Shown here: positions 24,752 to 41,321 of the stretch, piece by piece | Position numbering within the stretch: the stretch's first letter is position 1 | Layout of the letters: each line of letters starts with the position of its first letter | NCBI GenBank assembly: GCA_963662285.2 | Contig: CAXXMV010000008.1 | Location: 480,001-544,000, forward strand | DNA: 64,000 nucleotides | Reading direction: 5' to 3' | From: a bacterium | GTDB lineage: Bacteria > Hinthialibacterota > Hinthialibacteria > Hinthialibacterales > Hinthialibacteraceae | The notes under the pieces: model-generated | What the model saw: the letters and a program-made list of their open reading frames with translations, nothing else | Told to the model about the DNA's origin: nothing | The model's database searches: none | Made by a program: the position numbers and the translations under genes

Positions 24752-25018
24752 AATGCTCCCCTTCTTGGAAGATGTTTTTTTGCAGGAGATTACTTTTTCA
24801 TATACCTGCTATTGCGAAACTAATACCAGCTAAAAACAAGCAGGAATCAATCCGCACACGATTGGGATAGAACCTTTATAACCCTTTTATATTAAGAGAA
24901 ATCAACTGTGATAACAAGGTCTTGAAACCCGGGAACTATACGTCACAATAGAAAGACGCATTCATAATAAATGCGCCTTTCTTATTTCACAGATTAAGCG
25001 TGGTTTGCTTAACAACAA

Positions 25019-25315
25019 TCACTCATCTTCTTCGTCCATCTCAATCATATCACCTATTTCATTTTTGGGATTAGGTATGCTCTGCACGATTTCTTCCGCC
25101 TCAGTTACATCATCTTCAAGTACAAGAATACGAGAATGCCCTTTGACTGATTCAAATAATCCATCGAAAGCTTCGTCATGATATCCCTGAACCACATAAT
25201 GAATACCTGCATCATCAAGGGCGCTTGTGATAAAAGCTTCATGTATATCATCTTCGGTAATACCAACTTGTATCAGTTCTTCTTGGTCAGGATTCACGAT
25301 AAATTCTCCAATCAT
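25019..25315 (-). CDS. Small acidic protein, DUF2007 (PII-like fold) family
   Basis: EAFITSALDDAGI...RILVLEDDVTEAEEIV pattern. Confidence 0.65.
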   Translation of the reverse strand: MIGEFIVNPDQEELIQVGITEDDIHEAFITSALDDAGIHYVVQGYHDEAFDGLFESVKGHSRILVLEDDVTEAEEIVQSIPNPKNEIGDMIEMDEEDE

Positions 25316-25491
25316 GTATTGTGATAAAGTGATTCGACCTAATATGTATTTACAAAATGTTTAATGCAAAATCGCTAAATCTAATCTCTTTCTAACGATA
25401 TGTAGTTGATTATAAGTATTATTTCATCAACTCTTATATATGCTACTAGTCTAAGCGTATTTTGCACAAAAAAAATCAGAAATCAATTCTT

Positions 25492-26511
25492 TTATTTACA
25501 ATCCCCCCGCCATTCCAAACTTTGATCACGCATCAAACGCCAATCAAGTTCCGGCTCGCGACCGGCGGTGGTTAGATAGTTGCCCACCATCATACCGCTG
25601 GCCCCGGCGAAAAAAATCATACACTGTAAGTCATGCAAGTTTGATTCACGCCCGCCGCAAATTCTAATCGTCTTATCAGGAAGTATAAACCTAAAAAGTG
25701 AAATCGTCATCAAAATTTCCATCGGCGGCATAGGAGGTTGTTTTTCCAGAGGAGTTCCGGGGACTGAGTATAGAAAATTCATGGGAATCCCATCCACATC
25801 CAGTTCACGCAAAGTTAAAGCCAGGTCGATCCGGTCATTGATGGTCTCACCCAATCCGAAGATGCCCCCTGAGCATATTTTCATGCCAGCTTGATGAGAG
25901 GTTTTAATGGTTTTAATCCTCTCTTGAAAGGTATGGGTAGTGCAAATCGAAGGGAAAAAGCGTTCAGAGGTTTCAAGGTTATGATGTATGGTGGTAACGC
26001 CGCATTGACGTAAGTATCTTAATTGCTCAATATTTAATAAGCCAATTGAAGTATGAACGTCCAGCCCGGTCTTTTCTCTAATAATTATGGCAGCCTCACC
26101 AATTCGTTTCAACTCAGCTTCATTTTTCACGCCCGGGCCGCTGGTTACTAAGCCAAACGATTCAGCGCCATCTTGTTTAGCCTGTTGCGCCACTTTCAGC
26201 ATCTCGTCTATTTCCATCATAGAATAGACCGGCGCTCCAGTTTTATAACGCGATGATTGAGAGCAGAAAGCGCAATCCTCGCTGCATGCGCCCGATTTGG
26301 CGTTTACTATGGAACAAAGACTGACGTGGTTTTGATTATAATGTTCCCGGATACGGTTGGCATGATAAAACAGAAGCAAGGATTCTTTCGGATCAATCGC
26401 TCCAATTCGCTGCGCTTCGGAACGGTCGATTCGATATCCATGATTGATGATATTGTTTGATATATCTTCAAGAAATTTGCCAAGTGATTGATCTTCTTTA
26501 TTTTGATTCAT
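25492..26511 (-). CDS. bioB: Biotin synthase
   Basis: NAKSGACSEDCAFCSQS radical-SAM motif, HHNLETS, CSGGIFGLGE, IPMNFL, GNYLTT. Start moved to ATG 26511 because the upstream ORF extension is repeat DNA. Confidence 0.95.
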   Translation of the reverse strand: MNQNKEDQSLGKFLEDISNNIINHGYRIDRSEAQRIGAIDPKESLLLFYHANRIREHYNQNHVSLCSIVNAKSGACSEDCAFCSQSSRYKTGAPVYSMMEIDEMLKVAQQAKQDGAESFGLVTSGPGVKNEAELKRIGEAAIIIREKTGLDVHTSIGLLNIEQLRYLRQCGVTTIHHNLETSERFFPSICTTHTFQERIKTIKTSHQAGMKICSGGIFGLGETINDRIDLALTLRELDVDGIPMNFLYSVPGTPLEKQPPMPPMEILMTISLFRFILPDKTIRICGGRESNLHDLQCMIFFAGASGMMVGNYLTTAGREPELDWRLMRDQSLEWRGDCK

Positions 26512-26607
26512 GTTATTTCGACTTGTCCTTGTCGCCGATAGGGCTTTGCGTATTCCGGGCGCCCACGAGGGTAATGTCATTAAGTCAAGGAATTTCACCT
26601 TATCGTT

Positions 26608-26656
26608 GGTGGCTTGATCAAGGGCTGAGCGCAATGCGCTCTTGCCCTTGGCACCC
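26608..26656. repeat. Palindromic repeat family B
   Basis: ggtggcttgatcaagggc...gcccttggcaccc, reverse-complementary to 51956-51997. Confidence 0.7.
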
Positions 26657-26705
26657 AGCAATACAGATTATGCATTAATTATATGGATTTATGAACTTGC
26701 AAAAA

Positions 26706-27851
26706 TTATGGAAATATCTTAATAACAGGCTGCGTCAGGTTTCCTCCGCCATTATCCCATTTTATCAGACCGCTGGCGGCTTTATAGCCACTTAATTGAG
26801 TCAGGGATTTCGCCAAAGATGTGCGCTTTAATCCACTGGAACGAATAGACTTAATGATTAACTGCGCCGCATCATTGGCGTAAGTTGCAGAGAAAGTCGG
26901 GCGCTCAGCGAAGCGGCGTGAATATGAATGCTCAAACCGTAAATAAGGGCTGCATTTAGATGCATGTTCAAAAGGTTCAACCACATACAAAGTTCCAGAA
27001 TATTGGCTTGATATGACCTCAGCCTTAAATCCGGGAATCCAGGGAATGAAAAGCGGGCAATGCACCTTCCGCTTTACAAGCGAATCAATCAAACCAGCCA
27101 ATTGATTCGCTTGCAGACGAATCACCAGAGCATCCGGTTTGAACGAGTTTATACGTTCTATAATTTCATCAAATGATTGCAGATCAGCGTCAATAGTGAA
27201 ATGGAAAACTGGTGGAATATGTTTCTTATGCAAAGCCTCTTGTAATTCATCAGAAGAATATCTGCCGTCATGTTCGGTTGAAGATATCAAACCAATTCTT
27301 TGCAGTGTTTTGAGCTGCGCGATTTGACTAATCAACAGATCCGCTTGCACCCGGTCATCAGGAGGCAGACGAAATATCCAGGGCAGATTGATATGAGTTA
27401 ATGATGGATCAGAGGCAATAGGAGAAACCAACGGAACCCAAGCCTTGGTAACCACTTGCTGCGCGATATGGGTTGCATCTCCATTAATGGAGCCGATAAC
27501 CGCCCAGACGCGATCCTGGTAAACCAACTTGATCATCTCTTTTGAACCGGCGCCCCAGGGATCATCGGCCCAGCGTTGCACAACAGAAAAAGGTACGGAT
27601 TGATAACCACCCTCAGCATTGGCCTGTTCAATAGCCAGAGAAACTCCCTGTATTATGGCTCGCGCTACACCGCCGTCTTGCTGATATGGAGAGAATAGCC
27701 CGATTTTAATTGATTTAAGTTTTTCCACATCAGCAGTTTGGGTCTCCGGCCCGGAGAAAGGCTGGGGCGCGTCAAGCATACGATAAGGTTCTTGGGCGTT
27801 AATATTTATAGAGAGAAGAATGAAGATGGAAAAACAGATAATTGATCTCAT
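26706..27851 (-). CDS. LivJ-like (type I periplasmic-binding fold) substrate-binding protein
   Basis: Signal peptide MRSIICFSIFILLSININA; IKIGLFSP, GVSLAIEQANAEGG, WIFRLPPDD, ATYANDA; start 27851 because the upstream extension is repeat DNA. Confidence 0.85.
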   Translation of the reverse strand: MRSIICFSIFILLSININAQEPYRMLDAPQPFSGPETQTADVEKLKSIKIGLFSPYQQDGGVARAIIQGVSLAIEQANAEGGYQSVPFSVVQRWADDPWGAGSKEMIKLVYQDRVWAVIGSINGDATHIAQQVVTKAWVPLVSPIASDPSLTHINLPWIFRLPPDDRVQADLLISQIAQLKTLQRIGLISSTEHDGRYSSDELQEALHKKHIPPVFHFTIDADLQSFDEIIERINSFKPDALVIRLQANQLAGLIDSLVKRKVHCPLFIPWIPGFKAEVISSQYSGTLYVVEPFEHASKCSPYLRFEHSYSRRFAERPTFSATYANDAAQLIIKSIRSSGLKRTSLAKSLTQLSGYKAASGLIKWDNGGGNLTQPVIKIFP

Positions 27852-27868
27852 GTTATGGGCTATTATAT

Positions 27869-28192
27869 TGTCTGAATCTGGATACCCAGGATGGGTGGCA
27901 AGTGCAGTGTGTTGTCTGCCCTTGATCGAGTCACCTCTTATTTCAAGAATTCCCACTAACAATCCACACTGAAGACGGTATCATAGGATTGATTTCGTTT
28001 ATCCATGATTATCTAATCAAGGGCAGAAAGGACAACGTCCTTGGCGCCCACGCCTCACCGACCCATCAAAAAACCACCCATTCAATCAGAAAGCCACTCT
28101 CCGCTATGTCAGGGAAAATTCAATAGGGGGATTTTTCTTGCCAGGGTGGTTATTATCAACCCTCTCCTAGCCTCTCCCAATCTTGGGAGAGG
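27869..28192. repeat. Composite repeat cluster (families D, B inverted pair, A fragment, C)
   Basis: tgtctgaatctggatacccagg (27869); B arms 27893-27926 and 28016-28049; cgcctcaccgacccatc similar to 52030; tcaaccctctcc...gggagagg (28156-28192). Confidence 0.75.
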
Positions 28193-28208
28193 GATGATTA
28201 TTCTACAT

Positions 28209-29600
28209 TTAATTCTTCGAGACCTTGGTTTTTTGCTCTCCGAAGATGTCTTGGTATGAGTAGAACTTAAACTCTCTATCTTCTGCTATAGCCAGGGAGG
28301 AAGGGCTGATGTTATTGAAAATCTGGTCGAACTCTTTTAGCCCGGTGACGCCATTATATTGAGTCACTTTGGCTAATTCATCGCGGATCAGGGCGCGGTT
28401 GAGTCCGGCGCGTTCGATAGCGTCAATAATCATGGTCATGCCATCATAGGCATGGGCGGCGTAGGTTTCGGGAGCATCGCCAAAACGGTCGCTGAATGAT
28501 TTGACGAAATCGGTATATTTGGAGTCGCGGCTTTCTGGATCATAGGGATATCCGGCGATGACATTGCCGATGTTCTCTCCGGCCATTTCAAAGAATTTAG
28601 GTGATACCATACGGTCGCTGCCCAGGAATAGTTGATTCATACCCATAGCCCGCATTTGCTTAAGTATTAGAGCGGATTCTTCGCAGTCGCCATAAGTTAT
28701 TACTGCTTCTGGTTTTAGCGCTTTGATACGCTCAAGTTGTGGAGTGTAATCTGTATCGCCTACTTTGTAATTAAGTTCAGTTAAGAATGGATGACCGGAA
28801 CGGGTGGCGGCGTCGCGGAACTCATCGATGCTCATGCGTCCATAACGGTTATTAGCCCGCAAGGCGGCGACGCGGGTATACCCCAGTTTTTTGAAGACGT
28901 AATCAGCCATGAAATAGCACATCTGACGGTCATCGGTGATGCATCTAAATACCCAGGGGATATTGGTTTCAATAAAAGTGGGATCAGTATCGCCGGTATT
29001 CATCATGGGAATTTCAGCCTTCAAAGCCACCCGGATAGCAATATGGCTGTTAGCGCCATCAATTGATCCGAGTATAGCCCAGACATTATCTTTATAGGCC
29101 AAGTGGACGATTTCACTGCCGCTGGCGCCCCAAAGGCCGTTGTCGTTGCGGACTTTCAATTCATAGGGAACGCCGCTTCCTCTGTAACCACCGTTTGCAT
29201 TGGCGTGTTCAATGGCAAGACGGGCGCCTTGCATCATTTTGTGGCCTAAGGGTTCTTCATGAGACGCCCCGCCAGTAGCGACCGAAACGGTTTTCATGAT
29301 GGGACCTAAAAAGCCGATTTTGATCGAATCGAGATTCTTTGGCTCAGGAATATGACGCCCGTATCCCCGGTATTGTAATGGTTCACGGAAAAAACGGCGG
29401 TATGGTTCGGTGAATTCACCATAGGGGAAATATTCATCAGGCGTACGGCCATAGTTTTTCTTTAATAATTCAGGATCAGCCTTTTGAACCTTGGTAGTTC
29501 CATGAATTCTCGAATCGTCTAAAACTGTATCATCGCTGGCGATAGCGCTGCTTCCCCCGAAGAGCGCCATGACTAAAAACATCCCGATTATCTTTTTCAT
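28209..29600 (-). CDS. LivJ-like substrate-binding protein with N-terminal extension
   Basis: Signal peptide; IKIGFLGP, GARLAIEHANANGG, WVFRCITDD, AAHAYDG, GVTG; paralog of 26706-27851. Confidence 0.88.
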   Translation of the reverse strand: MKKIIGMFLVMALFGGSSAIASDDTVLDDSRIHGTTKVQKADPELLKKNYGRTPDEYFPYGEFTEPYRRFFREPLQYRGYGRHIPEPKNLDSIKIGFLGPIMKTVSVATGGASHEEPLGHKMMQGARLAIEHANANGGYRGSGVPYELKVRNDNGLWGASGSEIVHLAYKDNVWAILGSIDGANSHIAIRVALKAEIPMMNTGDTDPTFIETNIPWVFRCITDDRQMCYFMADYVFKKLGYTRVAALRANNRYGRMSIDEFRDAATRSGHPFLTELNYKVGDTDYTPQLERIKALKPEAVITYGDCEESALILKQMRAMGMNQLFLGSDRMVSPKFFEMAGENIGNVIAGYPYDPESRDSKYTDFVKSFSDRFGDAPETYAAHAYDGMTMIIDAIERAGLNRALIRDELAKVTQYNGVTGLKEFDQIFNNISPSSLAIAEDREFKFYSYQDIFGEQKTKVSKN

Positions 29601-29630
29601 GTAAATTTACCCCTTTGCTTAGATTTGACA

Positions 29631-29857
29631 GGGCGCCAAGGGCAGTGTATTTTCTGCCCTTGATAGAGTCCACTTTATTTAATTCAACAATTATTATCAA
29701 CGATTCACTCAAAAAAAACAAAAATATAATAAGTTTTAAAGTTTTGGTACATAGAGCCATATATGAATAATACTATAAAAGAATAAATCATCATAGAAAT
29801 TATTCTGCATCTATACAGTTGTCATCAAGGGCAGAAAGAACACTGCCCTTGGCGCCC
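29631..29857. mobile_element. REPIN/MITE-like element with 34-bp inverted family-B arms
   Basis: gggcgccaagggcagtgtattttctgcccttgat (29631-29664) and atcaagggcagaaagaacactgcccttggcgccc (29824-29857) around an AT-rich spacer. Confidence 0.75.
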
Positions 29858-29876
29858 GAGCACCCTACATTGGGTA

Positions 29877-30998
29877 TTACTTCAATCCAGCGTAATAACC
29901 TTTGCCGATGCCGTGCGCCAGGCCGTGGCCGGTTCCGATCCAGACATCGTCGCCCTGAAATTCTGAACAGATTATGAAATGATTGGGCAACGATAGTTTG
30001 GTGGGAACCGAACGGATTATTTTATCCTGCACCATCAAGTGAGCCGTCCAATGCTCTGCGTCATCCGCGTCGCGTTTATAGGTAACCCATGTATCGGATT
30101 CAAAATCCGCTAAGACCGCTAAACCCAGGTCGGTACTGCAATAACAGGTATTTTTGTCGCGTCCGACGGCGAAATTGATAAAATCGCTGATTAAACCGCT
30201 ATCAACCTTGGTATACCCCCGCCAGTGACGACCGTCATATCGGCTCAGGCCGAAATAGGTTGAAGCCCACATGATATCATCGCGAAATGAAACCGATGTG
30301 GTGATTATGTGGATCAAGCCATCATCGCGGTATAGATCTATTTCCATTTCATGATCGGGATCGCGATGGGCGTCCCAGTGTTTGGTTTCGACGTCCCATT
30401 CGAGGATTCCGCCGCCCCATACTGCTACATATACTCTTTTGCCGTGTGAATCAATACTGTAACACCAGATCTCTTCCATAGGCGCATTCTGATCGGTGAA
30501 GATTTCCCATTCGCCAGTGACGGTATTGTATGAACTGACTCCGGCGGTGGTGGCCACCCATAGTTCATCATCCAGGATAGTCAAAGCATAGACCACGTCA
30601 TTAACTAAACCGCTGTTTAATTGATGGAAATGATCGAAGCGACCGCCGCTGAAGCGGGCTACTCCGCCGCCAAAAAGCCCTAGCCAGACATCCCCGGTTT
30701 TCTGACTGACCGCGATGCCGCTGACTACCTTAAATGGCAGACCGTCTTTTTCCTGCCATACTTTCCACTTACCGTCTTCTAAAAGAGCCAGACCATCTTC
30801 AGTTCCAACCCACAGACGGTCGCCATCGGCTCTCAAGGAGAAGATATGGTCATTGGGAAGTCCGTTTTCTTCTGCGTAGAAAGTTTCCCACTCGGTATAA
30901 ACATAGGGTTCACCCGCCAATTGAGGAATTTCTTCACCCGCGCACAAAAGAAGCGGAAGTCCAGCGAATAATATAATTATTAATGTAAGACGCGTCAT
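29877..30998 (-). CDS. Secreted beta-propeller protein (two-component regulator propeller-like, no kinase)
   Basis: Signal peptide; repeats GLPND.I...LWVGT..GL, SGLVNDVVY...LWVAT..GV, SGLISDFI and LPNHFI...VWIGT..GL. Confidence 0.8.
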   Translation of the reverse strand: MTRLTLIIILFAGLPLLLCAGEEIPQLAGEPYVYTEWETFYAEENGLPNDHIFSLRADGDRLWVGTEDGLALLEDGKWKVWQEKDGLPFKVVSGIAVSQKTGDVWLGLFGGGVARFSGGRFDHFHQLNSGLVNDVVYALTILDDELWVATTAGVSSYNTVTGEWEIFTDQNAPMEEIWCYSIDSHGKRVYVAVWGGGILEWDVETKHWDAHRDPDHEMEIDLYRDDGLIHIITTSVSFRDDIMWASTYFGLSRYDGRHWRGYTKVDSGLISDFINFAVGRDKNTCYCSTDLGLAVLADFESDTWVTYKRDADDAEHWTAHLMVQDKIIRSVPTKLSLPNHFIICSEFQGDDVWIGTGHGLAHGIGKGYYAGLK

Positions 30999-31015
30999 AA
31001 TTTAACTCCCCCACT

Positions 31016-33871
31016 TTATAGCGTTTTTAAGTATTCAACTAAATCTTTGAGTTGATCTTTAGTCATATCATTGGTCACCCCATGCCGATCAAAGGGATTA
31101 TAACGGGTCCAGATTTCTTCCAGGGTTTCCGCACGCCCGTCATGCATATAAGGCGCCGTCTCATAAATATTATTCAAATGAGGAATATCAAATTCCAAAT
31201 CAGTATCCAATTCGGAAATCACGCCGATATTAACCACATCGCGGCTGGTGTAATAAGGCGCCGGGTGACAGGAGTTGCACCTGTTATCCAAGGGAATCTC
31301 TTTACCCGAATTATCCATAGTGCGTTCAAATATTATTTTGCCGCGCCGTTGGGCGGGCGTCATTTCACCGTCCAAACGAAAGCGATTGGGGTTGCGCGGA
31401 ATGGTGCATATATAGCGGTCTAAGGCTTTAACCTGTTCGGGAGTAAAAGGATCAATTCTAGTGAAGAACACAGCCAAACGGGGGCCGCACTGTCTGCTGA
31501 GAGAAGGATTCTTGCCGGTCCACTTAAATGGCGCGGTATCCAGGATGCCGCGCAGGGTTCGATTATCTACCGGATTGATGCCGATGCCGTCCGGTTCGAT
31601 ATCATAAGTTACGCCATCAACCCCGCCGTCGGGATGACAAGAGTGACAAGAGAACTGACGCCCGAATGTTACTTCCGCATTATGGAAAATACGCTCGCCC
31701 ATGCGTTCTTCAGTGATTTGCTGGGGGCCGCCCAGGTCGATGGTTTTTATACGCTCTTGTTTTGCGACGTCGATGACGGATATGGCATCATCCAAGGCAT
31801 CGGCGACGTAAACGTATTTACCATCAGGAGAAACGGTCAGGCCGCGCGGCCCGATGCCCACTGTTATACGCTTAAGGATAAACTCGGTTGATACGCCCAG
31901 ATGATTTGGTAGAAGGTTTTTGCGTTCTTCATCAGTCGCGTTTTTCAAGATGGATTTCATCTTATCAAGATCGATAACCGCAACCGCATCAATGCCGCCG
32001 CCGGTGACATAGGCGTATTTGCCGTCAGGCGTTATAACCACATCGGTGGGATCGGCGAATCCGTTATCCAGTTCATCCAGGGGCAGTTGATCGACGCGGC
32101 CGTCTTTCCAAAGAACGCCCAGAGTATTGGTCATAACCCATCCCTGGATAACGCGGGTCATGGGAACCAGGTTTTTGGTGCGCACCATAGTAACCAGAGC
32201 GAACTCACCATCTGGAGAACAATCGACGCCCTGCACCAGATTAGCCTCGGGAATTACGATGCGCGTATCTATGAAATCGCGTTTGGTTTCGATAACGGTA
32301 ACTTCGGAACGGCATGGTTCGCGGAATTTGACGAAATGAGAGAGGTTGTTGGTTACATAAACCGACTCACCATCCGATGAGCGCGAAACGCCCCAGGCGC
32401 CCCGTGCGGCGGAAAGCCGTTTGGCCTCTTGGCCTTTTTGGATATCAACGATTGACACGTCATCAGAACCAGCGTTGGCGACGTATAAGCGCGTACCCTC
32501 CAGGTTAGTGGTCATTTGGTGGGGTTCATCGCCAACCGGGATTGTTTTGATGATGGCAAAGGATTGAGAGTCAATCACCGACACAGTATCGGCGCCCCGG
32601 TTGCTGACAAAAACCTGTGATTGATCAGGCGACAGGCAGACTCCATGAGGCAGGTTTTCAACCTGAATTTCCGCAATGCGTTGGCCGCTGGCAGCTTCTA
32701 CAACAATTAGACTATCAGAGGCTTCGCAAGCAATATATAGCCGCTCCCCATCGCGGGACACGGCTATATTAAAAGGGGTTTTATATTCTATCCCCGCTGA
32801 AGCAGTCTTATCCTTCTTCTTGAAATGCTCAATTTTCTTTACAGCTTTTTCATAGTCGAATGGTTTGCCATCAACCTCTTTGGGATGGCAGCGCAGACAA
32901 GTTTCACGGTTCACTTTCCATAAACCTGATTCACGCGAGGCGATGGGATCAAGCATGACCGCTTCGAGCATATATTCACTGCCAGGACCATGACAACTCT
33001 CACATTGAACGCCTTGAGCAACATCGAAGGATTCAGTAAACCATCCCGCCTGCTCGCCATGTCCGGTGGAATGGCATTTCAAGCATTGTTCAGCTTGTTG
33101 GGGATTTCCCTCAATGCCTCTTTTCTTAGCGATTTCCTTGGCTTTTTGAGTCCCTAGCACAGCAAAGGCTTTGGAATGACTGGAGAGACGCCATTTACTG
33201 ACGGCGTAGCCCATCATCGCACCCCGGTGACACTCAGCGCATGACATGGCGCCGACATATTTAGGACCGTCAATTAATTTTTTGGGCTTTTTAGGTTCTT
33301 CAGGAATAGGACCGCCCTTGCCGCTGTGAGCAATCTCGCCCAGAGCCATCTTGTAATCGAATTTCTTGACTTTCAAAACCGCCAGATGCGAACCTTTATC
33401 TTTATGGCAGATCATACAATCCTGCTCGGTGGGCATCTTCAGACCAGCCATCATGGCGGCATTGGGATTTCGCATAACATCCAGTTCGGCGTACTCGCTG
33501 CCCGATCCATGACATAATTCGCATTGCACGCCATCCTGTATATGAAAGGTTTCATCCAGTTCCCAGTCTTCGACATTGGACGCAGTGGCATGGCAACCCA
33601 GGCAGACCGGACTATCAAATGGGTTGTCAGCAATACCCGATAGTTTGGCGATTTCTTGTGATTCCGGCATGGCTAAAACCGCATAGGCGTTGGCATGTTT
33701 GGTTAAACGCCACTTATTATACTGGTCGCGCTGACCTGCATTATGATGACAGGCGCGGCATTTCTGCTCGCCAATATAGACGCGATCCGCCGCCCATGAG
33801 TCCAGCGAAGCGCTGATAGATATCATGACTAAAAGCCCGGCAGCCAGAAGCCCCTTCTTGTATCCCAACAT
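31016..33871 (-). CDS. Secreted decaheme fusion: two cytochrome c554-like tetraheme domains + YVTN beta-propeller + CCP/MauG-type diheme domain (HzsB/C-like)
   Basis: Ten CxxCH: CRACH, CLGCH, CELCH, CMICH, CAECH, CLKCH, CESCH, CLRCH, CHSCH, CNSCH. Also YIG..C..CH/W..H/GVQCE.CHG.GS c554 pattern, YVAN/YVTN/YVTG/YVAD blades, TAPFKWTG and TAPYMHDG. Confidence 0.9.
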   Translation of the reverse strand: MLGYKKGLLAAGLLVMISISASLDSWAADRVYIGEQKCRACHHNAGQRDQYNKWRLTKHANAYAVLAMPESQEIAKLSGIADNPFDSPVCLGCHATASNVEDWELDETFHIQDGVQCELCHGSGSEYAELDVMRNPNAAMMAGLKMPTEQDCMICHKDKGSHLAVLKVKKFDYKMALGEIAHSGKGGPIPEEPKKPKKLIDGPKYVGAMSCAECHRGAMMGYAVSKWRLSSHSKAFAVLGTQKAKEIAKKRGIEGNPQQAEQCLKCHSTGHGEQAGWFTESFDVAQGVQCESCHGPGSEYMLEAVMLDPIASRESGLWKVNRETCLRCHPKEVDGKPFDYEKAVKKIEHFKKKDKTASAGIEYKTPFNIAVSRDGERLYIACEASDSLIVVEAASGQRIAEIQVENLPHGVCLSPDQSQVFVSNRGADTVSVIDSQSFAIIKTIPVGDEPHQMTTNLEGTRLYVANAGSDDVSIVDIQKGQEAKRLSAARGAWGVSRSSDGESVYVTNNLSHFVKFREPCRSEVTVIETKRDFIDTRIVIPEANLVQGVDCSPDGEFALVTMVRTKNLVPMTRVIQGWVMTNTLGVLWKDGRVDQLPLDELDNGFADPTDVVITPDGKYAYVTGGGIDAVAVIDLDKMKSILKNATDEERKNLLPNHLGVSTEFILKRITVGIGPRGLTVSPDGKYVYVADALDDAISVIDVAKQERIKTIDLGGPQQITEERMGERIFHNAEVTFGRQFSCHSCHPDGGVDGVTYDIEPDGIGINPVDNRTLRGILDTAPFKWTGKNPSLSRQCGPRLAVFFTRIDPFTPEQVKALDRYICTIPRNPNRFRLDGEMTPAQRRGKIIFERTMDNSGKEIPLDNRCNSCHPAPYYTSRDVVNIGVISELDTDLEFDIPHLNNIYETAPYMHDGRAETLEEIWTRYNPFDRHGVTNDMTKDQLKDLVEYLKTL

Positions 33872-33887
33872 TACTTTTCCTCCAAAT

Positions 33888-35531
33888 TCAGGACTTAGGT
33901 TCTTTCACTTTTAATATCTGGTTGGCGGTGACGTCTGTCAAAGTCTGTTTTATACCGCCCGGCCAGGATATCTCGACTTTGTCGGCTTTTTTATGACTAC
34001 TCAATCCGAAATGGGCGCGGTAATCGCTTTGCGACAAATAACCCGAACTGCTCAAAATATCGCGCGTCTGGGTCAGATCGCCGATGGTCACGCGAATCCG
34101 GGCGCCGATGGCGTCGCGGTTGCATTGGGTTCCTTCCAGGGCGATCATCAACCAGTTATTCTTGTTCCCGCCGTCATTACGCAGCAAGCGGGGGCGGTTG
34201 TTGATATTTAGAATCAATGCGTCCAAATCTCCATCATTGTCAATATCACCGGTAGCCGAACCCCGGCTGACGAATTTCTCCTGGAAGTCCTTGCCGCATT
34301 TTGAGGAGATATCGATGAACTTACGGCCCTGATCATTCCAGAAGATGACGTCTTCCTCCGGTTCGAGATGATGGGCGTCGCCATTCACGATCAGTATATC
34401 GATATACTGGTCGCAATCATAATCAAAAAAGTTGCCCGACCAGCTGACATATTGTCCTAAAACCGAGGCCAAACCCATCTGGGCGCTCATTTCCTCGTAT
34501 AAACCATCACCAGTATTGAGGTATAAACAGCCATAACCCATATCCGGTACCAGTAGATCAAGCAGTCCGTCAAGGTTGAAATCGCCGAACTCCGGCCCCA
34601 TGGCTGAGGTGGCTTCGCCGCTCTGCCCGAATCCTGTAGCGGTTAACATGGCGATATTGGTGAAGGTTCCATCACCGTTATTCTGGTACATATAATTTTC
34701 CATGGCATCATTGGCCACGAAAATATCTATATCGCCATCATTATCAATGTCGCAGGTGGTCACTCCCATAGCCCGGCCTTCGGGATTAAGAACGCCTGCT
34801 TTTTCGGTAACTTCTTCAAAGGTTCCATCGCCCTTGTTGTGATACAGAATATCCGGCTGGCCTTTGTATGACAGCGGTCCGGGAAAAGCATCTGCGGCAT
34901 AGTAATATTTATATTCGGGATCGTATTCTACATAGTTGCCTACATAAAGATCAAGCAGGCCATCTTCGTCATAATCGAAGAATGAGGCGCCTAATCCCCA
35001 CAAGTCATTCTCGACGCCTGCCGCTTTGGTTTTATCGGTGAAGGTTCCATCGCCGTTGTTTTGATAGAGTACATTGGGGCCGTAATTGGTAACAAAGAGA
35101 TCAGCGTCGCCGTCATTGTCATAATCAGCGGAGACGCAGGCCATGCCATAACCTTTATGACCAACGCCGGCTGCTTCAGTCACATCGGTGAAGGTTCCAT
35201 CGCCGTTATTACGATATAGGGCATTTTGTAACTTGTCGGCCAGTTTCCGGCCTCTGGGGTGGCTGACAATTTTATTGTATTGTTCATTGATCAGGTAGAT
35301 ATCAAGATCGTCGTCTCCATCGTAATCGAAGAATGCGCAACCCGCTCCCGTCGATTCGACTATATTGCTCATGTCGGGATCGCCCATGTTGTGTTGAAAC
35401 GTGATGCCCGCTTTTTGGGTGATATCAACCATTTGGGGACAGAGGTCCGGTTGCCCGCCAATATTCACCGGCGAAATTAATGTAATAATGGAAATAGAAA
35501 AAACGGCGCAATAAAACAAATGCTGCTTCAT
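33888..35531 (-). CDS. CRTAC1/ASPIC-UnbV family FG-GAP repeat protein
   Basis: Signal peptide; repeated DYDxDGxxD and LYxNNGDGTFTD; C-terminal RDAIGAR...GYLSQSD...HFGL...VEISWP (ASPIC/UnbV). Confidence 0.92.
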   Translation of the reverse strand: MKQHLFYCAVFSISIITLISPVNIGGQPDLCPQMVDITQKAGITFQHNMGDPDMSNIVESTGAGCAFFDYDGDDDLDIYLINEQYNKIVSHPRGRKLADKLQNALYRNNGDGTFTDVTEAAGVGHKGYGMACVSADYDNDGDADLFVTNYGPNVLYQNNGDGTFTDKTKAAGVENDLWGLGASFFDYDEDGLLDLYVGNYVEYDPEYKYYYAADAFPGPLSYKGQPDILYHNKGDGTFEEVTEKAGVLNPEGRAMGVTTCDIDNDGDIDIFVANDAMENYMYQNNGDGTFTNIAMLTATGFGQSGEATSAMGPEFGDFNLDGLLDLLVPDMGYGCLYLNTGDGLYEEMSAQMGLASVLGQYVSWSGNFFDYDCDQYIDILIVNGDAHHLEPEEDVIFWNDQGRKFIDISSKCGKDFQEKFVSRGSATGDIDNDGDLDALILNINNRPRLLRNDGGNKNNWLMIALEGTQCNRDAIGARIRVTIGDLTQTRDILSSSGYLSQSDYRAHFGLSSHKKADKVEISWPGGIKQTLTDVTANQILKVKEPKS

Positions 35532-35583
35532 ATTTGCTCCCCGAAAGAAATGCTATAACTCAATGATAATAAGATTATCGCTA

Positions 35584-35669
35584 TCAACCCTCTCCTAACC
35601 TCTCCCAGTCTTGGGAGAGGAATCCTTTGCCACCCAAGCGTAGGGTGGGTCGCGCTTCACTGACCCACC
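35584..35669. repeat. Family C palindrome followed by a GTAG-type REP (family A)
   Basis: tcaaccctctcctaacctctcccagtcttgggagagg and gtagggtgggtcgcgcttcactgacccacc. Confidence 0.75.
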
Positions 35670-35892
35670 AAAGATGCACCTTGTTATCTCTCAAAATCCC
35701 TCTCTATAGAAATTTTTATACGTAATGGGATTCATTCTATCCTATTTGATACACCGGCTAGAAGCCGATGCTCCCCACTCTATGATTCTCCCCGTTTCAT
35801 TCTCCTCTCCTGAGTTGTGTCCGGAGAGGAAACCAGGGGGAGAGGGGATTTGGTTGCCCGAAATTACCAGGTTGTCAGGTATAGATAAAATC

Positions 35893-37860
35893 TTAATTTT
35901 CATTTACAGCAGGCAATCCACCAATATCGTACAAAGCGCCCAGGTCAATCCACTCAATTAACAATGCCTTCTCCAGAGCAGTAAGAGATTGCTTGGGCGG
36001 CATTTGAATATCAGACGGATTAAGCGAATCATCTAAAAACGTGACATGCTCACCTATAACATACTTAATCAATGGACTCTTGCGGGCGCTGCCGGGAACT
36101 ACATAAGATAAATGATCTTCATCAGAGGCGTTCGACAGAAGACTCTCATAAACCGTAAGCATTGATTTTTTACTATTGGAAAATGATGAGAGTTTGTCAA
36201 CATCCAATTCAGGTTTAACGCCGCCTGCGGCATGGCAATCAGTTCCAGAACATCTGGCTTGCAGGATGGGCTTTATCTGATTGACGAAATCAACCGTTCT
36301 ACGGCGCTGTGGCGGCAGAGTGAGTTTCCTGGCTGTCTTGGCCAAGGCCTGCACCAGGCGGTTGGGCGGCGCCAGTTCGCGGTCTTCATGACACCCGATG
36401 CAGCCGCGCCATTCACGCGGCATTACATAGGTCCAGCTGCGCTGTTCAGCTACAGAAAGACCGTGCTCATCCAGCAACTGAAAGCGTACTGGAATATGAG
36501 AAGGAATTTCTATATGAAATGATCCATCCGCTTCGACTGGAACAACCCCCAGTATGCGCTGCGGAGTTGAAGCGTCTATCCGGGGGGGCGCCTGGTTATT
36601 ATCGTTTTCACTTAACAACGGCAAGCCTTCGATGACTCGCATCCGTTTAACTGTTCCCGGCGCAAGTTCTTTAATCTTTGGAAACTGGCTCTCATATACA
36701 TTCAAGCAGAAGAAGACTCCGGTATCCTTCTCTAGATTAACCACCGATGAACGGCCTTTGACTTTGGCGTGCGGCGCCAGAACCTGGGCGTCAACGCAAT
36801 GCCAGTTTTCGGCTGAATAGAGTTGCTTAATCCGCTGGCCGTTGCCGGGATTTATCTGATAAAGGCTGAAGCATTGCTGCGGATCATTTTTTCTGTATGA
36901 GGCGATCAATCCACCATCCGGCGTTGCGCATGGACTATGGAACAGGCCGCCATTTTCATGACTCAGCGTCTGATAAGAATGAAGCGGGCGACGCAATGTC
37001 ACATAAGCCAGGTCGCCGCCGCCCAGCCATAGCGTTGGATCAGATGCAATCATATAAGCGCGTCCGGCGCTGTCGGCGATATGAACCATATCCAGATAAA
37101 GGGTGGAGGAATGATCCACAAAATAGGGCAGCATATCGGCGCCATCATTATTTATCGCCATCAATCCGTAGCCGCTGGATTTCTTCCAACTGGAATATAC
37201 CAAACGCCCGTTGGGCAAGACGTCAGGGGAGAAATCTGAACTGAGGTTATAGGTAATCCGGGTGGAATGGCTGCCATCAAGTTGAGCGGAATATATTGAA
37301 AAGCATGATCCCGAACCGGATTCATTAATCCAACCTGATTCGGAACTGAGGTATGCAATCTGATCAGTAGGCAAAGCGTCGTTGAGATGAAAAAGAGAAC
37401 CGACGTATAAAGGCGACACGCAATCACCCTTAGAATGCGTCAGTCGGGTTTTTGCGCCGCCATCATGATTCATACGCCAAATCTGCCAGGCGTCGCCTTG
37501 ATTCTTCTTACCTGCAAACAGGATTTGTTGACCATCAAAGGAGACGGCAGGATCGCAGGCTGAGAAAAACTCAGGAGTGAGCACAACCAGTTTTTCCGGT
37601 GGATCAGTGGCTTGATGACAAACAATGCGCATACCATCCACATAGCGGTCGTCGGGTAAATAGAAAGATTTTTGATAAGGAGAAGATTGCGCTGGAATCT
37701 GAACAAAAATCAAATCAGAGCCTTGCGCCGAGTCAGCTATGCTGCAACCCCACACCAGGATCAAAACATAAACCAACCATAGAGGAAAAACCCGCCGTAC
37801 TATTCTATCCGCCCGATGATCCGGGATCAAATAGAGCGCATCAGTTAGCATCCTGTTCAT
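35893..37860 (-). CDS. Hydrazine synthase alpha-subunit-like protein (TolB-like propeller + HZS-alpha middle domain + C-terminal cytochrome c)
   Basis: DPAVSFDGQQILFAG/WQIWRM propeller; GVFFCLNVYES, VKRMRVIEG, LGVVPVEADGSF.IEIP..IPVRFQLLD.HG...SW...GCIGCHE; C-terminal IKPILQARCSGTDCH...MPP...WIDLGA. Confidence 0.85.
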   Translation of the reverse strand: MNRMLTDALYLIPDHRADRIVRRVFPLWLVYVLILVWGCSIADSAQGSDLIFVQIPAQSSPYQKSFYLPDDRYVDGMRIVCHQATDPPEKLVVLTPEFFSACDPAVSFDGQQILFAGKKNQGDAWQIWRMNHDGGAKTRLTHSKGDCVSPLYVGSLFHLNDALPTDQIAYLSSESGWINESGSGSCFSIYSAQLDGSHSTRITYNLSSDFSPDVLPNGRLVYSSWKKSSGYGLMAINNDGADMLPYFVDHSSTLYLDMVHIADSAGRAYMIASDPTLWLGGGDLAYVTLRRPLHSYQTLSHENGGLFHSPCATPDGGLIASYRKNDPQQCFSLYQINPGNGQRIKQLYSAENWHCVDAQVLAPHAKVKGRSSVVNLEKDTGVFFCLNVYESQFPKIKELAPGTVKRMRVIEGLPLLSENDNNQAPPRIDASTPQRILGVVPVEADGSFHIEIPSHIPVRFQLLDEHGLSVAEQRSWTYVMPREWRGCIGCHEDRELAPPNRLVQALAKTARKLTLPPQRRRTVDFVNQIKPILQARCSGTDCHAAGGVKPELDVDKLSSFSNSKKSMLTVYESLLSNASDEDHLSYVVPGSARKSPLIKYVIGEHVTFLDDSLNPSDIQMPPKQSLTALEKALLIEWIDLGALYDIGGLPAVNEN

Positions 37861-37887
37861 AATTTATCAGTTATTCTAACAATACAA

Positions 37888-39021
37888 TTATTTAGATAAT
37901 ATTGCCGTTGCATCCAGTTCGTATAACAGTTCGTCGCGACATACATCAGCCAAAGTGCAAACCACAGGTATCTTATCCAAACCCATGCGGCTGGCGATAG
38001 AGTAGTACATCTCAACATCCTGAGGCCGTTTTACAAACGAAGTAGCCTGACATATATCATCGAGTCCAGCGCCGCCTACTTCTAAAAGGGCTTGTACATT
38101 TTCCAGAGTTCGCACCGTTTGCCGTTCAAAATCCCCTTCAAAAACGCTTACGCCCTTTTCATCAATAGCCGCAGTACCTGAAACAAATATATATTGACAA
38201 GAGTCAGTCTCCACCGATAAAGCGCGGGCGAAGGCTGAACCATATTCCGGCGCCTCGTTCTGCTTTGGGTTAATCAACCGCTTCGCTTCAAAGGTCTGAC
38301 CATCAATAGGCTTCATAGCCAACAGATCAAGAGTGCACCAACCGCCATCAGCATTTCGCCCCTGGATGCCAGTGCTGGCGGGAATGGAACTGAGGGGATT
38401 GCCATTAAACAGCCCCATTCGCTTGAAAGCATCATTACGGACTAGATTAAACTCATCATACCAGTCCAGAATATTATGCAGATAAAACCAGGTACGCCGG
38501 ACATCATTAAATTTCCATTTTTGTTTATCTAAAATATGCTCGATTAATTCAAAGGTTCTGCTGGTCTCTTCGCCAGGTGATTGCCCCCCGGTTTCACGCA
38601 CCAGGCGTCCGACATCAGACAGAGTCAAATAACGGGCGTCATTACCTGTAACAATGCGGCCGCAAGCCTCGCCTTGCCATTCCAGCAGAGTGGATTCCGG
38701 TTGGTTTTTACCTTGCAAAGCTACAGCATGAATCCCGGCTACGCCTGAACCGCTGAACGGCGTACCTTCAACAAAAGTCGGCGGGATATCTGATTTAACG
38801 CCTTTCTCATCAAAAATCCGTTTACGCTCTTGCAGGATAGTATAAGATGATTTGCTTTCACCATATATACGTTCATGCAACAATATAGTTTGCTGATATT
38901 GAAGATAATCCGCTATTTTTCCAAAGCCTTGAGCAACAATATCGTCTATCGAATGATCAGTCGAGTCAGGAATCCAGGAAAGAAAAATCAGATCGCCTGG
39001 ACCATCAGTTGAAAAGAACAT
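37888..39021 (-). CDS. Rid/YjgF-superfamily multi-domain protein (FkbO/Hyg5 chorismatase-like architecture)
   Basis: VRRTWFYL..I...Y..FN..R, PASTGI, NPKQ.EA.EYG..F.RA, IFVSGTAAID, ADVCRDELLYELDA; AAGGAG RBS before ATG 39021. Confidence 0.8.
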   Translation of the reverse strand: MFFSTDGPGDLIFLSWIPDSTDHSIDDIVAQGFGKIADYLQYQQTILLHERIYGESKSSYTILQERKRIFDEKGVKSDIPPTFVEGTPFSGSGVAGIHAVALQGKNQPESTLLEWQGEACGRIVTGNDARYLTLSDVGRLVRETGGQSPGEETSRTFELIEHILDKQKWKFNDVRRTWFYLHNILDWYDEFNLVRNDAFKRMGLFNGNPLSSIPASTGIQGRNADGGWCTLDLLAMKPIDGQTFEAKRLINPKQNEAPEYGSAFARALSVETDSCQYIFVSGTAAIDEKGVSVFEGDFERQTVRTLENVQALLEVGGAGLDDICQATSFVKRPQDVEMYYSIASRMGLDKIPVVCTLADVCRDELLYELDATAILSK

Positions 39022-39381
39022 AAAATACCCCACTCCTTAAATTCAAATAATTCAACCGATTACTGCCCAGTAACACCGGTTGAATCCTCCCAAAAAGTAC
39101 AAATAGCGATAGCGATCTTCGCATAACGCCGAACCAAATCAACTTATTTTATCGAATATCTTCAGCAGCTTCAAGAGAAGGGGGAACTAATCATAGTTAA
39201 GTGCATAATCGAAACAATGAAAGTATGCCTTTGGGTGATAGCGTAAAGGATGTCATAACAGGTAATTCGGGTAATTAACCGTTAATATAGCAATTTTTCC
39301 TTGAGATACACTTCAGATTACAGAAGTACCCTCTAGAATAGCCCTTGGATCACCTAATGAAGAATAAAAGGTTTGATAATC

Positions 39382-39819
39382 ATGAATCCAGCTAAAATTG
39401 GAGATACGGTCACCGTACACTATACGGGAACCCTAAAAGATGGATCCGTTTTTGATACATCAGAAAACCAGGAGCCCCTAAATTTCACTCTGGGCAACAA
39501 TGAAATGATCCCCGGCTTTGAAAATGCGATTATCGGATTATCCAAGGGAGAGAGCAAAACTTTCACCCTGACTCCAGATGAAGCCTATGGCGAACAAGAT
39601 GATGAATTGATCATTAACATGCCCCGGTCAGAATTCCCTCCCGAAATTGATCCGGAAGTGGGAATGGTGCTTAAAGTAACCAATGAGGACGACGAAGAAG
39701 AAGACACGCACCTGATGATTACTGAATTGACTGATGACGAAATCACGCTTGATGGCAATCATCCATTAGCTGGAGAAGAACTCACTTTTGAAATTAATAT
39801 AGTTGAGATCGTTGAATGA
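39382..39819 (+). CDS. FKBP-type peptidyl-prolyl isomerase (SlyD/FkpB-like, no His-rich tail)
   Basis: VHYTGTL.DG.VFDTS, MIPGFE, EAYG, DGNHPLAGEELTFEI. Confidence 0.93.
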   Translation: MNPAKIGDTVTVHYTGTLKDGSVFDTSENQEPLNFTLGNNEMIPGFENAIIGLSKGESKTFTLTPDEAYGEQDDELIINMPRSEFPPEIDPEVGMVLKVTNEDDEEEDTHLMITELTDDEITLDGNHPLAGEELTFEINIVEIVE

Positions 39820-41267
39820 ACCTATCACGTCGGCTTTTCTTACAGAAAACAGGCGCCGCTGCATTGCTCGCCGCAACTGGTTTGGAAAAAAGCGCACTGG
39901 CGCAAGAACGCCCTAATATCTTATGGATAATCGGAGAAGACCTGTGCCCCGATTTAGGATGCTATGGCAATAAATTAGTCCATACCCCAAATCTAGATCA
40001 ACTGGCCAGCCAAGGCGTCCGCTTCACCAATGCCTTCACCACAGCTCCAGTCTGTTCGGCGGTGCGGTCTGCATTTATGACGGGAATGTACCAGACATCC
40101 ATCGGCGCCCATAACCACCGCAGCCACCGTACAGATGGTTACCGGCTGCCATCAGGAGTCCGGCTAGTCACCGATTATTTCCGCGACGCCGGTTATTTTA
40201 CCTGTAATGTCAAAACCATTGCGCCCGGAGTTAAGGGAACCGCCAAAACCGATTTTAATTTTACGGTTGATAAACCTTTTGACGGGACGGACTGGAATCA
40301 ACGCCGGGAGGGCCAACCCTTCTTCGCCCAGATCAATCTGCAGGAAGCCCATCGGAAATTTAAACGCGCCAAGGATAATGCGGTTAATCCTGATGACGTC
40401 GAGATTCCACCTTACTATCCAGATCACCCCATCACGCGACGCGACTGGGCTGACTATCTCGATACCATAGGATATCTGGATAAAAATATTGGCGTAATTC
40501 TAGAACGATTGGAAAACGAGGGTCTGGCCGACAACACGGTCGTTCTCTTCATGGGAGATCATGGCCGATGCCATGTACGCGGTAAACAATGGCTCTACGA
40601 CGGCGGCATCCATATCCCGCTTATAGTGCGCTGGCCGGGCAGAATCAGGGCTGAACAGGTGCGAGATGAAATGGTCAGTTCAATAGACGTGACAGCTACT
40701 TTGCTCAAAACCGCTGGCATTGAACCTCCCCGCAATATGGAAGGCCAGGTCTTTCTTGGCCCCAATCGCGACCCGGAACGTGAGTATATTATCGCGGCGC
40801 GTGATCGCTGCGACGAAACAGTCGATTGCATCCGATGCGTTAGATCCAAGGATTTCAAGTACATACGCAATTACCTACCCGAACGTCCCTACTCGCAATT
40901 AAACCGTTATAAAGAATGCTCCTATCCCGTATTGCGCCTGATGCGCCGTCTTAATAAAGCAGGAGAACTGACGCCAGCGCAGGCCAGGTTCATGGCGCCA
41001 GTCAGGCCTAAAGAGGAACTTTATGATTTACGCAATGATCCCCATGAAATTCATAACCTGGCTGGTGATGCTAACAGCGCTGACACGCTGATAAAGATGC
41101 GCGGCATACTCGATAACTGGGTAAAGGATACCGGCGATCAAGGACAGACGCTCGAAGAACCTTCAATTCATGAATACCACCTGAAGGCTCTTAAGCAAAG
41201 TTACGATAAACGGCTGAAGAAACTTTATGACGATGAGGGAATGGGATTAGAGGATATAAACCTCTAA
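39816..41267 (+). CDS. Tat-exported Cys-type (formylglycine) sulfatase
   Basis: SRRLFL signal; RPNILWI, TPNLDQLA, CSAVRSAFMTG, GDHG, EELYDL..DPHE..NLA. Confidence 0.93.
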   Translation: MNLSRRLFLQKTGAAALLAATGLEKSALAQERPNILWIIGEDLCPDLGCYGNKLVHTPNLDQLASQGVRFTNAFTTAPVCSAVRSAFMTGMYQTSIGAHNHRSHRTDGYRLPSGVRLVTDYFRDAGYFTCNVKTIAPGVKGTAKTDFNFTVDKPFDGTDWNQRREGQPFFAQINLQEAHRKFKRAKDNAVNPDDVEIPPYYPDHPITRRDWADYLDTIGYLDKNIGVILERLENEGLADNTVVLFMGDHGRCHVRGKQWLYDGGIHIPLIVRWPGRIRAEQVRDEMVSSIDVTATLLKTAGIEPPRNMEGQVFLGPNRDPEREYIIAARDRCDETVDCIRCVRSKDFKYIRNYLPERPYSQLNRYKECSYPVLRLMRRLNKAGELTPAQARFMAPVRPKEELYDLRNDPHEIHNLAGDANSADTLIKMRGILDNWVKDTGDQGQTLEEPSIHEYHLKALKQSYDKRLKKLYDDEGMGLEDINL

Positions 41268-41290
41268 GACTAAGCAAAGATAAAGATAGA

Positions 41291-41321
41291 AAAAAGCCCA
41301 ATCAAATCTGATTGGGCTTTT
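41291..41321. terminator. Bidirectional intrinsic terminator
   Basis: aaaaagcccaatca-aatc-tgattgggctttt between convergent genes. Confidence 0.85.

Follow-up and report, generated by a model that had tools for sequence, protein, structure and literature searches.

The 64,000-nucleotide window analyzed here (positions 480,001 to 544,000 of contig CAXXMV010000008.1, assembly GCA_963662285.2, from a bacterium of the Hinthialibacterota) was found to contain a cassette of seven co-oriented genes (g1 to g7) on the minus strand at window positions 26706-39033. The cassette fits an already published kind of locus, the clade I homologues of the anammox enzyme hydrazine synthase (HZS), and the kind itself is not new. 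Its core is composed of six periplasmic proteins, g2 to g7, whose order is kept across many phyla, often with the cytoplasmic Rid-family g1 in front. In this clade I cassette, a protein resembling the alpha subunit of HZS (HzsA) and a fusion resembling the beta and gamma subunits (HzsB and HzsC) probably work together, and no hydrazine would be made. The best reading of the whole is a periplasmic redox complex of HZS architecture, with 12 haems and two sites, acting on a small substrate. The identity of the cassette is far more secure than the electron path or any one choice of substrate.

The genes, separated by gaps of 16-361 bp, are listed below together with the three parts of g4.

g1, 37888-39033, minus strand: 381 amino acids (aa), Rid-family protein with a chorismatase fold, cytoplasmic, without a signal peptide
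g2, 35893-37860, minus strand: 655 aa, HzsA-like dihaem protein
g3, 33888-35531, minus strand: 547 aa, secreted FG-GAP/ASPIC-UnbV (CRTAC1-type) propeller
g4, 31016-33871, minus strand: 951 aa, 10-haem fusion
g4 residues 1-355, 32807-33871, minus strand: signal peptide and eight CXXCH motifs, in two cytochrome c554-like tetrahaem units
g4 residues 356-715, 31727-32806, minus strand: HzsB-like seven-blade (YVTN/lactonase-type) propeller
g4 residues 716-951 and the stop codon, 31016-31726, minus strand: dihaem domain resembling HzsC and the CCP (cytochrome c peroxidase)/MauG proteins
g5, 29877-30998, minus strand: 373 aa, secreted single beta-propeller of the two-component-sensor (Reg_prop) type
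g6, 28209-29600, minus strand: 463 aa, secreted LivJ-type (Peripla_BP_6) solute-binding protein
g7, 26706-27962, minus strand: 418 aa, second and more divergent LivJ-type binder (Peripla_BP_6)

All reading frames lay where an earlier note on this DNA had placed them. Its description of seven co-oriented genes, six with signal peptides, held when signal peptides were judged by eye, and its domain names agreed with Pfam and NCBIfam for all seven. Classic N-terminal signal sequences were seen in g3, g4, g5, and g6, and in g7 when read from an internal Met. Export signals were present in six of the seven proteins, with g1 as the exception. The probable start of g7 is the ATG at 27851, since alignments to homologues begin no earlier than about residue 37.

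The alpha-like protein g2 comprises, in order, a long N-terminal hydrophobic helix (modelled as a helix at residues 14-44), a TolB-like propeller, an HZS_alpha middle domain with the haem alpha-I motif C487-IG-C490-H491 (CXXCH), and a C-terminal haem domain with the haem alpha-II motif C537-SGTD-C542-H543 (CX4CH). The Pfam family HZS_alpha matched at 85.5 bits (cut-off 26.6). The sole PDB sequence match was the HzsA chain 5c2v_A (6e-40), in four stretches spanning all three domains. The same chain was the top match of the AlphaFold model (pLDDT 83.7) over its whole length (E 9.5e-39, TMq 0.73), and the runner-up structures were TolB proteins that matched the propeller only (TMq 0.35).

The fusion g4 carries ten CXXCH motifs (at residues 38, 90, 117, 152, 211, 263, 290, 325, 742, and 865), a number kept in 79 of 80 orthologues. 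Pfam identified Cytochrome_C554 in two stretches and a propeller of the lactonase/YNCE type, and the c554 structure 1bvb was matched at 4.7e-9. The best PDB match was the HzsB chain 5c2v_B (2.7e-43). The C-terminal dihaem domain, whose features are C742-HS-C745-H746, Trp784, Cys795, and C865-NS-C868-H869, matched the HzsC chain 5c2v_C at 2.5e-18, as against 1.3e-6 for the dihaem peroxidase 1iqc and 1e-6 to 1e-5 for ordinary peroxidases and MbnH. These values, together with the presence of Cys795 in 80 of 80 rows, set the domain apart from ordinary peroxidases and MbnH, a grouping that the earlier note had named as fatal to its proposal. HZS chains were the best solved relatives of both proteins, and the HzsA-like and HzsB-HzsC-like architectures do stand one gene apart, as had been described. 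A quick tree of g4 (SH-aLRT support only) placed the window sequence within a 10-haem group, apart from true HZS and short fusions, with true HZS on a long separate branch. Two genomes of the same family (loci L026 in G018 and L027 in G002) carry a shorter g4 of 795-800 aa, in which the N-terminal haem region aligns as one unit; this recalls the four-motif variant of Opitutus terrae described in PMC12758564.

Conservation of the gene order was observed at several taxonomic depths. A strong g4 orthologue was present in 16 of 19 same-family genomes searched and in one of six same-order genomes. All seven genes were intact and in order at 12 of these 17 related loci; among the remaining five, one had all seven but broken, three were cut by contig ends, and one was without g7. 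At locus L028 (G001:C5), from a metagenome-assembled genome (MAG) of the same family, the genes corresponding to g2, g4, and g7 are all broken in two, and that of g4 has one in-frame TGA; the split genes may reflect assembly error or decay.

A wider scan with one genome per species yielded at least 306 related loci, and synteny was counted in the best 80 of the 306, using only loci with room to judge. The best 80 were labelled as Acidobacteriota, Planctomycetota, Verrucomicrobiota, Gemmatimonadota, Calditrichia, Anaerolineales, and others, with g4 identities of 51-71%. Directly upstream of g4, g3 was found at 68 of 69 judgeable loci, and g2 was present at 60 of 61. After g4, g5 followed at 73 of 74, g6 was kept at 64 of 66, and g7 at 49 of 58. 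At several of the nine loci counted as lacking g7, a second binder was present that scored closer to g6. A long g1 lay upstream at 18 of 56 judgeable loci, while a Rid-domain gene, long or short, was near g2 in 28 loci. The order g2 to g7 was kept in nearly all 80 loci across many phyla, and the lack of co-conservation that would have refuted the earlier note was not seen. The seven-gene set is far beyond chance, as its order recurs across phyla; g5 is a fixed member of the cassette, and g1 is a frequent but not universal upstream member.

The pairing of the two HZS-like proteins also recurs outside the cassette. The source genome contains 11 HZS_alpha matches and a second, looser HZS-like locus (G000:C6:1127813-1137110, positions 7813-17110 of L030), which encodes a short beta-gamma fusion of 628 aa, a divergent FG-GAP protein of 413 aa, a Peptidase_M14-like protein of 936 aa, and an HZS_alpha protein of 829 aa, and which is flanked by histidine kinases, one of them hybrid. 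An alpha-like gene next to or near a short beta-gamma fusion was found in the paralogous loci L030, L031, and L032. In two loci of class-level relatives with a short beta-gamma fusion, the alpha-like proteins carry F5/8-type-C domains.

A contact between the two proteins was predicted by co-folding residues 355-951 of g4 with residues 372-655 of g2, each with a 50-row alignment. The runs gave ipSAE values of 0.70, 0.66, and 0.51, with a median of 0.66, whereas the best of three controls scored 0.01, and the alpha/beta-gamma interface on which the earlier note had staked its claim was accordingly predicted. Of 80 solved complexes, 58 attained the mark used, as did two of 110 mismatched pairs. 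At least 73% of contacts were in common between runs, and the partner pLDDT was at least 70. The predicted contacts join g2 residues 484-506, directly after the haem alpha-I motif (including 493-502), to the highly conserved g4 loops 564-581 and 652-659. Conservation was higher at the interface than in the rest of each protein (0.745 vs 0.588 in g4, and 0.612 vs 0.381 in g2). On these models, the most likely assembly of the alpha-like protein with the beta-gamma fusion is the one seen in hydrazine synthase.

The residue states were compared with true HzsA, HzsB, and HzsC references from anammox genomes; in one phylum, 14 of the 301 genomes passed the HzsA cut-off, and one locus (L123) carries the published Kuenenia numbering. 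In HZS, haem alpha-I has Tyr591 as a ligand, and His587 of its CXXCH motif and Cys303 hold Zn. The alpha alignment comprised 54 cassette rows and six true HzsA. The alpha-I CXXCH motif was invariant in all 54 cassette rows, whereas the positions of Tyr591, Ser590, and Cys303, present in six of six true HzsA, fell in gaps in 54 of 54; alpha His772 was likewise in a gap in every cassette row. The alpha-II motif was kept as CX2CH or CX4CH, and a Met-Pro-Pro motif occurred near the His772 position in most printed alignment rows, so that His/Met ligation of haem alpha-II may be inferred. In the gamma alignment (80 cassette rows and six true HzsC), both CXXCH motifs were kept, and Cys795 aligned in 80 of 80 rows with gamma Cys165, the extra haem-linking Cys of HzsC; haem gamma-I probably has a third covalent link through it. 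Gamma-144 was Trp in all 80 rows (Trp784 in the window) and His in six of six HzsC; according to PMC12758564, the Trp in this column corresponds to the CCP/MauG Trp position. The HZS beta loop was recognizable in g4 with its acidic residues replaced.

Profile scores and genome content gave a similar picture. The top NCBIfam families for the cassette were hydrazine_BC, hydrazine_beta, and hydrazine_alpha, and their scores came to roughly one fifth to one third of the respective equivalog cut-offs. Specifically, hydrazine_alpha gave 164 bits on g2 (cut-off 800), where true HzsA genes gave 1518-1606 bits. On g4, hydrazine_BC gave 231 bits (cut-off 1250), hydrazine_beta gave 194 bits over profile positions 31-369 of 372 (cut-off 560), and hydrazine_gamma gave 71 bits (cut-off 625). 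The HAO/HDH family (PF13447) had no match in the source genome, which is 7.29 Mb in size and 92.5% complete, while the same search gave 14 and nine matches in two true anammox genomes; the genome is non-anammox, as the earlier note had supposed. The cassette is not a hydrazine synthase, because its scores lie below the cut-offs, the HZS residues are missing, and no HAO/HDH-family gene was found.

Compared with anammox HZS (PDB 5C2V), the cassette has in common the three-domain alpha, the seven-blade beta, the dihaem gamma, the extra Cys linking haem gamma-I, and the predicted alpha/beta-gamma contact beside haem alpha-I. It differs in that beta and gamma are fused, eight haems stand in front of them, and the alpha gene comes first. 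It is also without the alpha-I Tyr ligand, the Zn site, and alpha-II His772; its alpha-II motif is CX4CH, gamma His144 is replaced by Trp, and its genome is without HDH/HAO. The sequence identity between anammox HZS and the cassette proteins is about 23-31%.

The text of PMC12758564 (Hagglund et al., Genome Biol Evol, December 2025) describes clade I HZS-homologue clusters with the same gene arrangement and residue states. As described there, an alpha homologue, an FG-GAP/CRTAC1 protein, and a fused beta-gamma protein are followed by two substrate-binding-protein genes, and the fusion is extended at its N-terminus by eight further haem motifs, classed as two c554 domains. Both alpha haem sites are present, Ser590 and Tyr591 of alpha fall in a gap, Cys303 and His772 of alpha are missing, and the clade has Cys at gamma-165, Trp at gamma-144, and a beta-loop Glu that is not kept. 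The assignment of the window locus to clade I was made from gene order and residue states; the tree covered true HZS, short fusions, and other 10-haem fusions, while the members named in that paper are from Aquisphaera, Thermogutta, Novipirellula, Syntrophobacter, Paludibaculum, and Opitutus. The carrier here belongs to another lineage; the paper, as described in its text, lists a few cultured carriers, among them Opitutus terrae, Thermogutta terrifontis, Paludibaculum fermentans, and Syntrophobacter fumaroxidans, whereas at least 306 loci were found here in species-representative genomes of many phyla. Its text regards these homologues as unable to make hydrazine and proposes no function for them. 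Its main text makes no mention of a chorismatase or RidA, and its passages on propellers concern HZS or beta homologues; its figures or supplements may show g5 and the Rid gene.

A related arrangement was reported in PMC10732223 (FEMS Microbiol Lett, 2023), where, in MAGs of Phycisphaerae UBA1845 that are not anammox genomes, a fused hzsBC-like gene is immediately preceded by an hzsA-like gene, and whose authors suggest a broader family of HZS-like enzymes with other substrates. There, as far as the text describes them, the two genes are adjacent and accompanied by hao/nxr-type genes, whereas here an FG-GAP gene stands between them and HAO was not found. The pairing of the two architectures, put forward in the earlier note as the notable part, was already in print in 2023 and again in December 2025. 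Only these two papers were found to bear on the cassette, and no functional study of it was found.

The accessory proteins of the cassette could be assigned to known folds. In g3, Pfam identified FG-GAP_3 (183 bits) and UnbV_ASPIC (78.5 bits), and its identity across phyla was 48-79%. The Reg_prop protein g5 was modelled as a propeller (pLDDT 91.9), with the periplasmic sensor propellers BT4663, BT3049, and BT4673 of Bacteroides hybrid two-component systems as its best PDB matches (E ~2e-13, TMq 0.65); no close paralogue of it was found in the source genome, where the next match was 38 bits. An acidic loop at g5 residues 213-227 (D-P-D-x-E-M-E-x-D-L-x-R-D-D-G) was invariant in 61 of 61 aligned orthologues and may be a cation or ligand site. 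Peripla_BP_6 matched g6 at 156 bits and g7 at 85.9 bits. The best PDB relatives of g6, which shares 49-77% identity across phyla, were binders of branched-chain and other amino acids (~1e-25), and no transporter genes lie alongside it. Ribonuc_L-PSP matched g1 in two stretches (60.3 bits), the NCBIfam FkbO/Hyg5 chorismatase family gave 46.7 bits (cut-off 325), and the PDB matches were Rid proteins and the chorismatase-fold structure 5ag3. A periplasmic Rid protein was considered and rejected, as all 12 short Rid genes inspected had hydrophilic N-termini without a signal peptide.

The 12-haem, two-site complex of HZS architecture could operate as follows. Electrons would pass from the N-terminal octahaem c554-like wire to haem gamma-II, and Trp784, the residue of CCP/MauG type, would relay them to haem gamma-I, the catalytic haem. 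A small species from gamma-I would then move through a channel lined by the conserved beta loop 564-581 to haem alpha-I, which would have an ordinary CXXCH-His site and be wired to haem alpha-II. Haem alpha-I is probably redox-active, because this ordinary site stands where HZS has its Tyr/Zn arrangement. As fixed accessory subunits, the propellers g3 and g5 and the binders g6 and g7 would capture or present the substrate. We infer these accessory roles, as well as all of the chemistry.

Several points weigh against this reading. The electron path and the channel would be carried over from HZS by analogy, the beta-loop Glu of HZS is not kept in g4, and g2 is the least conserved member of the cassette (33-55% identity). 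The co-fold relied on cut domains and on alignments made for this analysis, and its pass may reflect likeness to the solved complex 5C2V rather than binding. The permutation p-values for interface conservation (about 0.02 and 0.01) are overstated, because the residues are contiguous. The cassette is without a membrane quinol dehydrogenase, an ABC permease, or an ATPase that would account for the electron partner and the fate of ligands held by the binders. Finally, the source genome, at 92.5% completeness, yielded no NrfA, NirK, Sec-type NosZ, or HAO (NirS and Nor were not searched), which weakens readings based on N-oxides. With these enzymes not found, the HZS catalytic residues gone in 54 of 54 rows, and gamma-144 occupied by Trp in 80 of 80, the N-N or N-O chemistry that the earlier note had envisaged was not supported.

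Among the alternatives, the gamma-like domain might be of the CCP/MauG/MbnH type, using H2O2 (or O2) either for detoxification with electrons from the octahaem unit or for oxidation of a partner or ligand by hole-hopping via Trp784. For both MauG and MbnH the target is a protein encoded alongside, which speaks for such a role, as do the CCP/MauG Trp at the gamma-144 position in all 80 rows and the family matches to CCP_MauG, MbnH, and MauG. Two CXXCH motifs in a CCP-type fold and a conserved Trp between the haem domains are likewise common to the domain and to dihaem peroxidases, MauG, and MbnH. However, these matches were weak (1e-6 to 1e-4), CCP_MauG reached 22.1 bits, just below its Pfam gathering threshold of 25.6, and HzsC was far closer than any peroxidase. 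Unlike those proteins, the domain here shares its chain with a propeller and an octahaem unit and carries the extra Cys of HzsC, and a simple peroxidase would not need an alpha-like partner, three further propellers, and two binders. Moreover, many carriers are labelled as groups that live as strict anaerobes, such as Sedimentisphaerales, Aminicenantes, and Thermoanaerobaculia. A peroxidase-like or MauG-like function is considered unlikely on this evidence. It nevertheless ranks slightly ahead of the two chemistries discussed next, and the rest of the probability goes to something else.

A reductase of small N-oxides, of the type from which HZS may have arisen, would convert NO or hydroxylamine to ammonium, with gamma-I making hydroxylamine and alpha-I finishing the reaction. 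It would suit the two-site architecture, the multi-electron store of 10 and 2 haems, and the c554-type domains. The ordinary His ligation of alpha-I would also suit it, in contrast to the Tyr-ligated alpha-I haem of HZS, which according to PMC12607021 could not be reduced. The same source places a distal Asp near HZS haem gamma-I, and this residue appears, by eye, to be lost in the alignment. This loss, the failure to find NirK, NrfA, Sec-type NosZ, and HAO in the source genome, and the fact that the binders, the FG-GAP protein, and the sensor-type propeller would be left without a role make an N-oxide reductase quite improbable.

Alternatively, an amine or a ligand derived from amino acids or peptides might be oxidized after delivery by a LivJ-type binder, with electrons leaving by the haem wire and the Rid protein handling an imine or enamine. 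This would agree with the amino-acid binders that are the best solved relatives of g6, the Rid-family gene near g2 in 28 loci, the TolB-like N-terminal propeller of the alpha-like protein, the peptidase genes scattered in the flanks, and the M14-like gene inside L030. The flank peptidase genes, however, vary between loci, and Rid is without a signal peptide while the enzyme would be periplasmic. We also know of no c-type haem enzyme that oxidizes free amino acids. Oxidation of such ligands is therefore judged a doubtful explanation, about as improbable as the N-oxide reductase.

Three further proposals fare worse. It is very unlikely that the cassette is specifically a two-site tunnel enzyme of the HZS-ancestor kind, in which gamma-I would generate a reactive reduced nitrogen (or oxygen) species and alpha-I would couple it to an amine or amino-acid ligand delivered by the binders. 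That the alpha-like and beta-gamma-like proteins are mere neighbours acting separately is equally hard to credit: gaps of 246-361 bp between some genes would allow separate transcription, and HZS_alpha proteins are abundant on their own, but the order is kept across phyla (60-73 of 61-74 judgeable loci), the controls of the co-fold were passed, and the pairing recurs in paralogous loci. A true but divergent hydrazine synthase, by which the organism would make hydrazine in a cryptic anammox-like chemistry, is close to refuted, since the full alpha, beta, and gamma architecture, the rank of HZS as best solved relative, and the kept equivalent of gamma Cys165 are outweighed by the scores of 164, 231, and 194 bits against cut-offs of 800, 1250, and 560, the loss of alpha Tyr591, Ser590, Cys303, and His772 (54 of 54) and of gamma His144 (Trp in 80 of 80), the lack of any HAO/HDH-family match, the long separate branch of true HZS, and the same conclusion in the text of PMC12758564.

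The surroundings of the cassette varied among loci. The flanks of 22 loci (104 open reading frames) contained no conserved quinol dehydrogenase, transporter, or haem-maturation genes, and the only common feature beyond the core was the presence of large proteins with TPR and FG-GAP/ASPIC domains. Such TPR, FG-GAP, and UnbV/ASPIC proteins flank L041, L042, L049, L052, L058, L062, L067, L072, L078, L089, L096, and L105, often on the opposite strand and just past the second binder. A DAHP-synthase-family gene lies directly upstream of g2 in six of the 80 loci (L038, L040, L044, L059, L103, and L108), and a short Rid gene precedes it in L038, L040, L044, and L108; a link to the shikimate pathway was considered and dropped, as six of 80 loci were too few.

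In the window itself, the downstream neighbour at 25492-26661 encodes the biotin synthase BioB (376 bits), which is unrelated and lies outside the gene set. On the same strand, 2.3 kb upstream of the cassette, an 830-aa protein with two tandem LivJ-type (Peripla_BP_6) domains is encoded at 41360-43852 (minus strand), and a divergent FKBP isomerase (39373-39819) and a sulfatase (39816-41267) lie between the two. The g2-g3 gap (35532-35892) is 361 bp long, compared with about 30-160 bp in most orthologous loci, and is similarly long in L018. No Rfam match at gathering scores was found in 25000-44500, this gap included. Promoter-like sites numbered 32 (24.7 expected) and terminator-like sites 25 (15.5 expected), with no clear minus-strand terminator in the intergenic gaps. 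Among the sequencing data sets listed for this DNA none was from RNA, and two DNA sets came from a single study.

Elsewhere in the window, a 1831-aa protein at 5880-11372 (plus strand) scored 232 bits against the type IX secretion sortase PorU, short of the cut-off of 420. The match hints at a cell envelope of the FCB rather than the PVC type, and an affiliation with PVC was not shown. The picture of a glycan-degrading lifestyle drawn from the earlier note fits the sulfatase, a GFO/IDH/MocA oxidoreductase at 23369-24751, and a glycoside 3-dehydrogenase-like protein related to the BT_2158 family at 48361-49812 (plus strand; 439 bits, cut-off 750). The stretch 50001-52000 has a GC content of 0.33, against 0.40-0.50 elsewhere in the window, and may be foreign DNA; a 541-aa open reading frame within it (50251-51873) had no NCBIfam match at 1e-20.

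Taken alone, the locus goes little further than the 2025 paper (PMC12758564). What is added to the text of that paper is a wider distribution (at least 306 loci), g5 as a fixed subunit, a recurrent Rid gene, and a predicted interface. Altogether, the cassette brings together 12 haem sites, four propellers, and two binders.

To our knowledge, hydrazine synthase was long thought to be without relatives. Its closest known relatives are now seen to form a tightly conserved and widely transferred periplasmic cassette in non-anammox bacteria. If the two-site tunnel reading were true, periplasmic chemistry of N-N, N-O, or N-C bonds would take place outside the anammox bacteria, in ordinary heterotrophs of many phyla. 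Once the chemistry of the cassette is solved, in whichever cultured carrier, the origin of HZS would become visible, and a new periplasmic redox reaction could come to light.

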